The notes under the pieces: model-generated
The model's database searches: none
What the model was told of the DNA's origin: nothing
Seen by the model: only the letters and a program-made list of their open reading frames with translations
Made by a program: the position numbers and the translations under genes
Source of the DNA: Promethearchaeota archaeon
Lineage (GTDB): Archaea; Asgardarchaeota; Hermodarchaeia; Hermodarchaeales; Hermodarchaeaceae
Length of the DNA: 18,477 nt
Assembly (NCBI GenBank): GCA_048939245.1
Contig: JBHLPR010000041.1
Location: forward strand, 1-18,477
Reading direction: 5' to 3'
Shown: positions 11,165 to 13,468 of the stretch, one piece after another
How positions within the stretch are numbered: position 1 is the stretch's first letter
How the letters are laid out: the number at the start of each line of letters is the position of its first letter

Positions 11165-11788
11165 ATGGAGCGCTGGACGAAGAATGAGACATACCGCAGA
11201 AAAGCCCGAAAGACTGGCTATCGCTCTCGTGCTGCATTCAAGTTAGTTGAAATCGATGAAAGATTTGATGTATTAAAACAAGCTATACGGGTTGTCGATT
11301 TATGTAGTGCCCCTGGTTCTTGGTTACAAGTTGTTAAGGAACGTTGCATTGGCTCCAACGTAGTTATTATCGGAATCGATATGGTTCATATAAAACCGAT
11401 TCCGGGAGTTCATATCATTCAAAGCTCCATCGAATCCCCTGATTTAGTAACCCAAATACTAAGCAAATTAGAACAACCTGCGCAGGTTCTACTCAGCGAT
11501 TGTTCTCCAAAACTAACGGGAACTAAATCCCTAGACAGAGCTCGACAGCTTTGGTTAGCCAAACTGAGCTATGAATATGCTACAAAGATACTTGAAAAAA
11601 GAGGTCATTTCATAACAAAGGTCTTTCAGTCTATTGAATTTGACGACTTCATTACGAGTGTTGGCAATTCCTTTCGTTCAGTGAAGACCTATAAACCTCA
11701 ATCGTCATTTAAACGGAGTCCAGAGATGTATCTTATTGCAAAAGGATTTCGTGGAAATCCGTTACCCGTTAACCAAGGCGCCCCTTAA
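11165..11788 (+). CDS. rlmE: FtsJ/RlmE-family RNA 2'-O-methyltransferase
   Basis: GYRSRAAFKL, VVDLCSAPGSWLQ, VLLSDCSP, FITKVFQ, KPQSS...EMY; the K-D-K-E tetrad appears present. Substrate uncertain (see findings). Confidence 0.9.
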   Translation: MERWTKNETYRRKARKTGYRSRAAFKLVEIDERFDVLKQAIRVVDLCSAPGSWLQVVKERCIGSNVVIIGIDMVHIKPIPGVHIIQSSIESPDLVTQILSKLEQPAQVLLSDCSPKLTGTKSLDRARQLWLAKLSYEYATKILEKRGHFITKVFQSIEFDDFITSVGNSFRSVKTYKPQSSFKRSPEMYLIAKGFRGNPLPVNQGAP

Positions 11789-12104
11789 TCCAAGAATTGA
11801 GTTTTTCACATAACCATGGACTGGTTGGTTGACCGGCTCCGCATTGATCGATATCAGGACAAATAAAGCAAGGACAGCCCTCAAGGGTATCCCATTCTGC
11901 TTCATCATAATCTTGCCAAATTAAACGAACGGTGGATTTACCATCATGTTTTTCTTCAACTTTCTTGACTTGCCCGTTTTTACTCAGTGAGTCAATAATC
12001 GTAAGAAGCGTAGATTCTGGTTCCCCCATTTTTTTAACTAGGTCTGCAAGAAGGATGCCTTTTTTTCCCGCGTCCTTAAGGAGCTCAATAGTACCAGATT
12101 CCAT
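11769..12104 (-). CDS. tfeB: TFE-beta / RPC34-like protein (winged HTH + C-terminal Fe-S cluster domain)
   Basis: wHTH (GILLADLVKKMG...IIDSLSKNGQVKK) followed by PCFICPDIDQCGAGQPTSPWLCEKLNSW, next to tfb. ATG at 12104 is preferred because BRE/TATA lies at 12132-12146. Confidence 0.85.
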   Translation of the reverse strand: MESGTIELLKDAGKKGILLADLVKKMGEPESTLLTIIDSLSKNGQVKKVEEKHDGKSTVRLIWQDYDEAEWDTLEGCPCFICPDIDQCGAGQPTSPWLCEKLNSWIKGRLG

Positions 12105-12131
12105 GACATCATCTAGAAAACAGGTCCGCCG

Positions 12132-12146
12132 GATAAAAAGTCTTTC
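12132..12146 (-). promoter_or_regulatory. BRE/TATA promoter of tfeB (short-leader or leaderless transcript)
   Basis: Minus strand GAAAGAC-TTTTTATC about 28 nt upstream of ATG 12104. Confidence 0.6.
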
Positions 12147-12156
12147 AAACACCAAC

Positions 12157-12203: not shown

Positions 12204-13133
12204 TTAGAGAGGAACTTCCAAATCCAATTTCTCCACAAGTTCTTTGTAACGATTACGTACTGTCACTTCGGTGACTCGGGCTACAGCCGCAACTTCACGT
12301 TGCGTTCTTCGTGAATTAGCCAGAACACTAGCAACATAGATAGCGGCAGCAGCAACACCTGTTGGTCCTCGACCACTTGTCAGTCCCTTGTTAGCAGCCA
12401 TCTTCAGGATTTGAATTGCCTGAGCTTGAACTTCACCAAGTAATTTCAGTTCACTGATAAATCTTGGAACATAGTCTATTGGAGAAGTGGGAGGAATGGA
12501 AAGACGCAATTCGCGAGCGATAAAACGATAACTTCGTCCAATCTCTTTTTTACCAACCCTAGAAACTTCAGCTACTTCATCAAGCGTTCGAGGAATACGA
12601 GATTGGCGACATGCAGCATATAGAGCAGCAGCCGCAACTCCTTCAATCGAACGCCCTCGAATCAAGCGTTGTTCGACGGCTCTACGGTATAGCATTGCAG
12701 CGATTTCGCGAACGTTTCGTGGAAGACCAAGACTTGATGCCATCCGATCAAGTTCGGAAAGGGCATATGCGAGATTTCGTTCTGTGGCATCGGACACACG
12801 GATTCTTCGTTGCCATTTTCGTAAACGATAGATTTGTGCCCTACGTTTTGGAGCCAAGTCTTTTCCATAACTATCACGATTTCGCCAATCAATCATGGTT
12901 GAAAGGCCCTTATCGTGAATAGTAAAGGTGAGTGGCGCCCCAACACGCGCACGTTTATCACGTTGTTCTTGATCGAAAGCCCTCCATTCAGGACCTTCAT
13001 CGATAATCCGATCTGTGAGCACGAGTCCACAATTCATGCAAATAATTTCTGCTCTTGAATAGTCTTTCACTAGACGGGTAGTACCACAGTCAGGACAATG
13101 AGCGAGCGCAGAAGCACTTACTTCTTTCGTCGT
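12204..13133 (-). CDS. tfb: Transcription initiation factor IIB (TFB); true start lies upstream of the track call, probably ACG at 13133
   Basis: The frame extends upstream of 13070 to complete the Zn ribbon [32 protein letters not shown]-reader, two cyclin repeats, [12 protein letters not shown]. Gene identity is secure; the start codon is inferred. Confidence 0.95.
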
Positions 13134-13387
13134 TTCCCTACGCCTCCTTTAGGAGCCTTCTTCAGATAGAGAGTTGTCCCAGGAGGCACCATGGCGTCTT
13201 TAATTCTCGCTTCAGGTTTTAATGCAGCAAACGGTTGAATTGTTGGCCCAAAGATATCAATTACTTTCCCAATTTGTAAAGATTGAGATGAGAAAACACG
13301 TGTCCCTAGTCTTATAGCTTGGTTTAGACGCGCAATGATATTTCCTTGCGCGGAAATGTGTAGAACATGACCAATTCCTTGCAGCAG
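13118..13387 (-). CDS. gar1: H/ACA RNP component Gar1/Naf1 (not in the ORF track; probable CTG start)
   Basis: Manual translation (L)[57 protein letters not shown]...[18 protein letters not shown] shows the Gar1 signatures GxVLH and IGKVxDIFGPxxxP, in the usual position before tfb. Confidence 0.9.
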
Positions 13388-13452
13388 ATCGACTCCTGGG
13401 AAGGCCAGAATTGGGTCGTAAGGGGGATTAGAAGTTGAGAAACAGACCGTGA

Positions 13453-13468
13453 CTTAAAAACGTTTGCC
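13453..13468 (-). promoter_or_regulatory. BRE/TATA promoter of gar1-tfb
   Basis: Minus strand GGCAAACG-TTTTTAAG; shares the AAACG-TTT junction with the rps8e promoter. Confidence 0.65.

Follow-up and report, generated by a model that had tools for sequence, protein, structure and literature searches.

The gene for the transcription factor TFB in the archaeal class Hermodarchaeia is best explained as being translated from an ACG codon that lies 9 nt behind a Shine–Dalgarno (SD) sequence, a reading to which, on comparison across the class, a probability of about 0.78 is given. The window analysed is the whole of an 18,477-nt stretch of DNA (contig JBHLPR010000041.1 of assembly GCA_048939245.1) from a Promethearchaeota archaeon whose genome is a 2.5-Mb draft MAG in 122 contigs; positions are those of the window, and (-) marks the reverse strand. 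In the proposed mechanism, tfb would be the second gene of a gar1–tfb operon and would undergo ordinary SD-directed initiation save for the ACG in the P site. Pairing of AGGAGG (13148–13143) with the 3' end of 16S rRNA would hold the small subunit 9 nt 5' of ACG. The normal initiator tRNA-Met(CAU) would then decode this codon despite a mismatch at its central position, yielding a TFB of 309 residues that retains its whole zinc ribbon and presumably begins with Met. The tfb start lies 13 nt before the gar1 stop, and ribosomes finishing gar1 probably feed it (translational coupling). The arrangement is fixed in the whole class as sampled and would be hard to revert, since NTG at this position gives TGA in gar1 and would remove the basic tail of its product. 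Initiation at ACG, the Met in first place, an output that is low or coupled to gar1 and a regulatory meaning of the arrangement are what we infer from the sequences.

The tfb reading frame and its product

As proposed, the tfb coding sequence occupies 12204–13133 (-), as judged from Pfam and orthologs, and runs for 309 codons plus the stop from the ACG at 13131–13133 (-). The frame reads TAA (13151–13149), AGG AGG CGT AGG GAA, ACG (13133–13131), ACG, AAA GAA GTA AGT, and continues with GCT TCT GCG CTC GCT CAT TGT CCT GAC TGT; an earlier reading of the DNA from its letters and open reading frames (the sequence-only reading) had given this codon string, and it is correct with all its coordinates as read on the reverse strand. 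No ATG, GTG or TTG was found in the tfb frame 5' of the GTG at 13068–13070 (-) when the frame was read back to the TAA, and the claim that a canonical start is lacking before the zinc ribbon is thereby confirmed. The GTG is codon 22 counted from ACG; it is the start taken by public gene calls, which shorten the TFB of Hermodarchaeia in every case to 288 or 277 aa, and it is not conserved as a start.

The TFIIB zinc ribbon was located at residues 13–53, numbered from ACG (Pfam PF08271, E = 7e-19), and is followed by two C-terminal cyclin-like TFIIB repeats (PF00382, two stretches, E = 7e-50). Both CxxC pairs of the ribbon are intact only if translation starts upstream of 13097. Given the position of the ribbon, a start at GTG 13070 would remove the first pair, Cys-Pro-Asp-Cys (TGT CCT GAC TGT; 13086–13097 (-)), and the loss of this half of the ribbon, as claimed from the letters, is borne out by the Pfam match. 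Orthologs in 18 species match residues 1–309 at 91–100% identity, with synonymous sites saturated across Hermodarchaeia, and the tail before the first Cys comprises 12 residues here and 13–14 in relatives. With random codons the chance of meeting no canonical start over 17 codons is about 0.4, so the absence alone is not improbable; what goes beyond chance is a conserved and evidently translated half of the ribbon upstream of the first canonical start.

Conservation of the start region

The class was sampled through 19 species from one family and two genera; counts over 18 species refer to those with a contig reaching the tfb 5' end, and the codon comparison covers 17 species. AGGAGG (13143–13148 (-)), a 9-nt spacer (here CGTAGGGAA) and ACG are present in 18 of the 18 species, representing both genera, and likewise in two metagenome contigs from close relatives, which were the only others that the scan returned. 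An alignment of tfb 5' ends across related genomes had been suggested as a check on the start, and it places ACG at the same SD spacing in every species aligned; indeed, the SD-positioned ACG start of a 309-aa TFB, as put forward in the sequence-only reading, appears well supported by the comparative evidence. Since the same layout is found in 18 independently assembled species, an assembly error is excluded. In species of the sister genus an in-frame TAA forms the end of the spacer, directly before ACG, which leaves an open frame of exactly 309 codons and makes an upstream start impossible there, and in three of 14 same-genus species, the source genome included, a TAA (13149–13151 (-)) closes the frame five codons upstream of ACG.

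Codons 13–21 (CPDCG...) change almost only synonymously among the 17 species (Cys TGT/TGC, Pro CCT/CCA/CCG, Asp GAC/GAT, Gly with all four codons and Leu with four), and within the first ligand pair the changes are synonymous without exception. This pattern indicates that the ribbon half is translated, and the start must therefore fall within 12 codons, from ACG to codon 12. Among these, the first ACG is the only conserved near-cognate codon: the second in-frame ACG (13128–13130 (-)), a less likely start, varies to ACT, CCG and ACA, and codon 10 reads CTC, ATC, CTT or ATA. Only two of 121 four-fold codons with a conserved residue are invariant, namely codon 1 (ACG) and codon 5 (GTA), both of which lie in the overlap with gar1. 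Two four-fold third positions of gar1 (GGA, GGC) inside the tfb SD never change, and neither of the gar1-silent changes that would destroy ACG (AAA to AAG; CGA to AGA) occurs; for comparison, variation is seen at 28 of 37 comparable Lys/Glu/Gln sites, and in 23 of 38 columns with a conserved Arg both CGN and AGR codons occur. As the species are related, all of these figures are descriptive and are not probabilities.

A ribbon-less isoform from GTG 13070, which the sequence-only reading had entertained as a second product, found no such backing. The codon is GTG in 14 species, GTT in two and GTA in one, and it has no SD, so that a conserved isoform of this kind is not supported. At codon 5 (13119–13121 (-)), a GTG in place of GTA would still encode Val in tfb, would turn the gar1 stop from TAA to TGA and would create a canonical GTGA start–stop overlap; it is absent from the 17 species, among which 119 of the 121 four-fold sites vary, and its absence may mean that a strong start in this frame is avoided or that TAA is preferred as the stop.

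Pairing with 16S rRNA and the translation apparatus

The AGGAGG motif forms a perfect 6-bp duplex with CCTCCT in ...CACCTCCT-3' of 16S rRNA from two relatives, which were used as the 16S 3' end is unassembled in the source genome; this end reads ...GGATCACCTCCT in both genera. In the source genome, a canonical start is found near the beginning of a long open frame after GGAGG at 127 of 302 sites, compared with six of 95 sites for the CCTCC reverse-complement control. The spacer between GGAGG and ATG, GTG or TTG peaks at 9 nt (57 of 154 sites, in the frame least confounded by Gly-Gly codons), and the geometry of tfb, with its 9-nt spacer, therefore equals the genomic peak. The site thus has the 16S complementarity and the spacer of an SD-type start but not its canonical codon, which is replaced by ACG; this codon is one position off AUG, and the frame downstream of it bears the mark of translation in the synonymous-only codons 13–21.

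Initiator tRNA-Met(CAU) is ordinary (A1:U72 and a G:C-rich anticodon stem), as is the elongator tRNA-Thr(CGU), and no special initiator tRNA was found among the 22 tRNAs detected in the draft genome. The start of aIF1 is likewise ordinary, with GAGGT, 5 nt and then ATG. No significant RNA structure was found at the gar1–tfb junction (folding z = -0.25). A weak hairpin, in which an upstream CUCUCU-like stretch pairs with the tfb SD (columns 5–11 with 32–39 of alignment A1, about 13143–13176 (-)), has a consensus energy of -4.8 kcal/mol and two pairs that covary between the genera, with one event per pair; it could mask the tfb SD until gar1 has been translated. The 16S match in one same-genus relative (L240, positions 619–4212 of contig C71 in genome G006) spans about 3.6 kb where the model has 1.48 kb, pointing to large insertions or introns within the rRNA gene.

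The overlap with gar1

The gene gar1, which encodes a subunit of the H/ACA RNP (Pfam Gar1), occupies 13118–13387 (-) with 89 codons plus the stop, beginning at a CTG (13387–13385), and overlaps tfb by 16 nt, with the proposed tfb start inside its 3' end. The Gar1 domain begins at residue 4 counted from CTG, no ATG, GTG or TTG precedes it in the gar1 frame, and an SD motif seen both here and in relatives (AGGAG, 13393–13397 (-)) lies 5 nt before the CTG. At this start position, 5 nt after AGGAG, CTG is found in 13 same-genus species, TTG in four species and ATG in one; in the source genus both genes of the operon have weak starts. A TATA-like box, TTTTTAAG (13453–13460 (-)), which lies upstream of gar1 and is likely to be the operon promoter, recurs upstream of gar1 in relatives, and gar1 and tfb therefore probably share one transcript.

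The gar1 stop (TAA, 13118–13120 (-)) lies 13 nt downstream of the tfb ACG and in the +1 frame relative to tfb. Read in the gar1 frame, ACG is divided between two codons: its A ends a Lys codon and its CG opens Arg CGA, so that any NTG at this position makes TGA in gar1 and the basic RRKK tail of Gar1 is lost. It counts against the ACG start that ACG and its neighbouring invariant bases also encode the Gar1 tail: because a C-to-T change in ACG would stop gar1, the constraint on gar1 accounts for part of the invariance of ACG and for the absence of reversion to ATG. An ancestral ATGA overlap, in which a change of T to C would have extended gar1 and created ACG, was considered and is unsupported, given that a similar tail, KRKRNK, ends the non-overlapping Gar1 of Borrarchaeum/Sifarchaeum.

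Alternative explanations

One alternative is termination–reinitiation, in which ribosomes that stop at the gar1 TAA (13120–13118) restart at another in-frame codon (the second ACG, AAA, GAA or GTA 13121) and the SD serves only as a tether. The gar1 stop is indeed 13 nt after ACG, the block AAAGAAGTAAGT is invariant and, besides codon 1, only codon 5 (GTA) is invariant among the four-fold codons; but double coding accounts for the constancy of the block, and GTA, AAA and GAA do not resemble AUG in any way that is known to permit initiation. With the second ACG variable and no other near-cognate codon conserved, with an SD-to-ACG spacing that is the genomic optimum, and with tfb genes of Borrarchaeum/Sifarchaeum that have an SD and a weak start where there is no overlap with gar1, this explanation is considered improbable. 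Less credible still is a programmed -1 frameshift from gar1 into tfb, stimulated by the upstream AGGAGG and yielding a Gar1–TFB fusion. Bacterial dnaX is a known case of -1 shifting stimulated by an SD, tfb lies in the -1 frame relative to gar1, and A_AAG (13124–13127 (-)) is kept in 18 of 18 species with the SD 15 nt upstream of it; however, this is the only conceivable slip site, the junction contains no canonical X_XXY_YYZ heptamer, and the site is followed by no stable structure (z = -0.25; consensus -4.8 kcal/mol; no notable conserved helix). The best 120 TFB homologs are 277–335 aa long and contain no Gar1 domain, and Gar1 fused to the ribbon that enters RNA polymerase would be hard to reconcile with what is likely to be the main TFB. 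In the closest outgroup, moreover, the two genes are separate and non-overlapping and tfb has its own SD and ATT, which means that weak SD-led starts occur on tfb where a frameshift fusion is impossible.

Editing of ACG to AUG is the classic way in which organelle genes without ATG gain a start, and the C of the tfb ACG is invariant; C-to-U editing would here also create UGA in the gar1 frame. We know of no C-to-U editing of mRNA in archaea, and the other near-cognate starts (CTG, ATT) cannot become AUG by this route. A 151-nt contig of a same-genus relative, from a run recorded as RNA-Seq (X19), covers 13057–13199 and reads C, and the only two G>A differences of the run fall at 13292 and 13322, not at 13132, at a depth of about 3; since X19 is a contig, which hides minority variants, and may include DNA carry-over, it weighs only lightly on the matter. 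All runs were contigs and not reads, and a further one (X17) covers 13105–13158 thinly. Editing is considered very unlikely. A negligible probability attaches to artefact or decay, with an assembly or indel error hiding a canonical start or with this tfb copy being a pseudogene. The draft state of the genome, an out-of-frame GTG (13117–13115) after the gar1 stop and six further TFB-like matches in the genome might be cited in its favour, but the layout is identical in 18 species assembled by several groups and in the two metagenome contigs, and the GTG is lost in two species. Nor does the gene resemble a pseudogene, with its protein conserved at the level given above whilst synonymous sites are saturated, and this copy is the one in the genome most similar to the TFBs of other archaea (up to 82%).

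Weak starts on other genes and in other archaea

Near-cognate starts are in real use in the Hermodarchaeia lineage on gar1, on EndoV and on the gene for a PP-loop ATPase, as judged from aligned relatives. EndoV has CTG in some species and TTG in others at the same column of the alignment; in one of them a stop closes the frame two codons before it, and in the source genome the next canonical start would delete 70 residues of the domain. In six species the PP-loop ATPase has ATT or ATC at a spacing of 9 nt from GGAGG, where others have ATG or TTG, and in the source genome a stop lies one codon upstream of the near-cognate start. The EndoV and PP-loop starts were confirmed across relatives. Behind GGAGG, a CTG appears to start a further protein, secreted or membrane-bound, whose signal peptide is a textbook one, and an ATC possibly starts the small primase subunit. 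Together with EndoV and the PP-loop gene, these loci of the source genome (G000) are at C26 53026–53682 (L198), C3 5096–5923 (L197), C121 from 952 (L196) and C115 from 10462 (L201).

Genome-wide, an excess of near-cognate codons behind SD motifs was not clear of the noise codons TTT, TGT and GAA: CTG was found at 6–10 sites, and ATT and ATC were likewise near noise. In view of this lack of a bulk excess, the case for CTG and ATT starts rests on gene-by-gene comparison, and such starts are a small minority. ACG behind SD motifs is at background across the genome apart from tfb, and it is a second point against the ACG start that the machinery is not seen using this codon elsewhere in the genome. 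Each of the six other ACG candidates in the source genome seems either to fall outside genes or to precede a canonical start. A near-cognate ACG start was thus found only at tfb, where it never changes, whereas the start codons of gar1, EndoV and the PP-loop gene toggle between species.

Weak SD-led starts on tfb are recurrent among the archaeal loci compared. No canonical start precedes the ribbon in 40 of 189 TFB loci with an upstream stop; 32 of the 40 are rows from Hermodarchaeia (all of those from the class, several being the same contig twice) and eight come from elsewhere. Four tfb loci of Borrarchaeum/Sifarchaeum (L049, L050, L051 and L119) have GGAGGTG, 7–8 nt and then ATT, with a stop two codons upstream of the ATT in L119, and in these lineages gar1 ends about 35 nt before tfb. 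In another Asgard TFB group the ATT start comes immediately behind a stop, a single Hadarchaeales TFB starts at an ATT that is called as the start by NCBI itself (P0085), and one further TFB (L115) appears to use ATA; the ATT and ATA loci beyond Borrarchaeum/Sifarchaeum are L033 and L193, L071, and L115 (ATA).

Relation to known start codons

Starts at ACG and CUG are well known in eukaryotes, and eukaryotic or viral examples with ACG include AAV VP2 and Sendai virus C'. The proposed tfb start is like the near-cognate starts of eukaryotes and viruses (PMC4705826) in having a codon one base off AUG, presumably read by the normal initiator tRNA, and in being a weaker start whose efficiency would depend on a fidelity factor of the eIF1/aIF1 type; the source organism, furthermore, belongs to the archaeal group closest to eukaryotes. 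Eukaryotic ACG starts, however, use scanning and Kozak context and serve as the start of an alternative isoform, whereas the tfb ACG would be chosen by an SD duplex at a fixed 9 nt within an operon and would be the sole start of an essential-type gene. Published work also speaks against the proposed start: reviews give the archaeal start codons as AUG, GUG and UUG and do not accept ACG (PMC7531240, PMC4705826), and it has been shown in vitro that aIF1 discriminates against near-cognate codons, with Sulfolobus aIF1 rejecting AUU (PMC4705826). In ribosome profiling of Haloferax about 30% of putative alternative start sites were near-cognate and were set aside (PMC7261190). No paper describing an ACG start in archaea was found in a search of the literature lying outside most subscription journals. 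Compared with SD-led internal genes of archaeal operons that use termination–reinitiation (PMC7531240), tfb is typical in its SD complementarity, spacing and stop overlap, but its ACG falls outside both the accepted AUG/GUG/UUG set and the start list of NCBI table 11. The ATT, ATC and CTG starts of that table, such as the one of the Hadarchaeales TFB, are similarly weak and SD-led and occur in the same gene family; their mismatch is at the first or third position, whereas that of the tfb ACG is central and the codon goes unrecognised by annotation pipelines.

The AUU start of bacterial infC (IF3), to which the sequence-only reading had likened tfb, is also a conserved non-canonical start behind an SD on a core gene-expression factor. 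The analogy does not extend to the control loop: the infC product itself rejects the weak codon, whereas TFB serves transcription and is no fidelity factor of translation; as aIF1, which is such a factor, has an ordinary SD and ATG, no closed feedback loop of the infC type is evident. It is possible, as a hypothesis, that the level of TFB is tied to start-codon stringency (aIF1) and to the translation of gar1. More tentative, and with the odds clearly against it, is the proposal that selection has retained ACG for its weakness, so that an aIF1-sensitive start coupled to gar1 throttles the dose of the main basal TFB; TFB dose would then follow the state of translation and ribosome biogenesis, and the ACG, ATT and ATA starts of tfb would be a recurrent solution and not independent accidents.

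If the ACG start is true, the accepted set of AUG, GUG and UUG is incomplete in the archaeal group closest to eukaryotes. Public TFB calls of Hermodarchaeia and of Borrarchaeum/Sifarchaeum-like lineages are without half of the zinc ribbon, so that comparative or structural work on Asgard transcription that relies on these entries begins from truncated proteins, and gar1, EndoV and the PP-loop enzyme are likewise liable to be given the wrong start in annotation. At the gar1–tfb junction (about 60 nt), near-cognate initiation on an SD-led archaeal mRNA could be examined at one conserved site.

Genomic neighbourhood

The neighbours on the tfb strand are SRP19, gar1, tfb itself and a small winged-helix-like ORF, and Trm1, an FtsJ-type methyltransferase, HypA, ribosomal protein S8e, a HypE-like protein and ScpB are also encoded nearby. 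The ORF directly downstream of tfb (11769–12155 (-)), which is 128 residues long, gives a faint Rpc34-like winged-helix match (E = 1e-3, below the cutoff) and may be another transcription-related factor of the same cluster.
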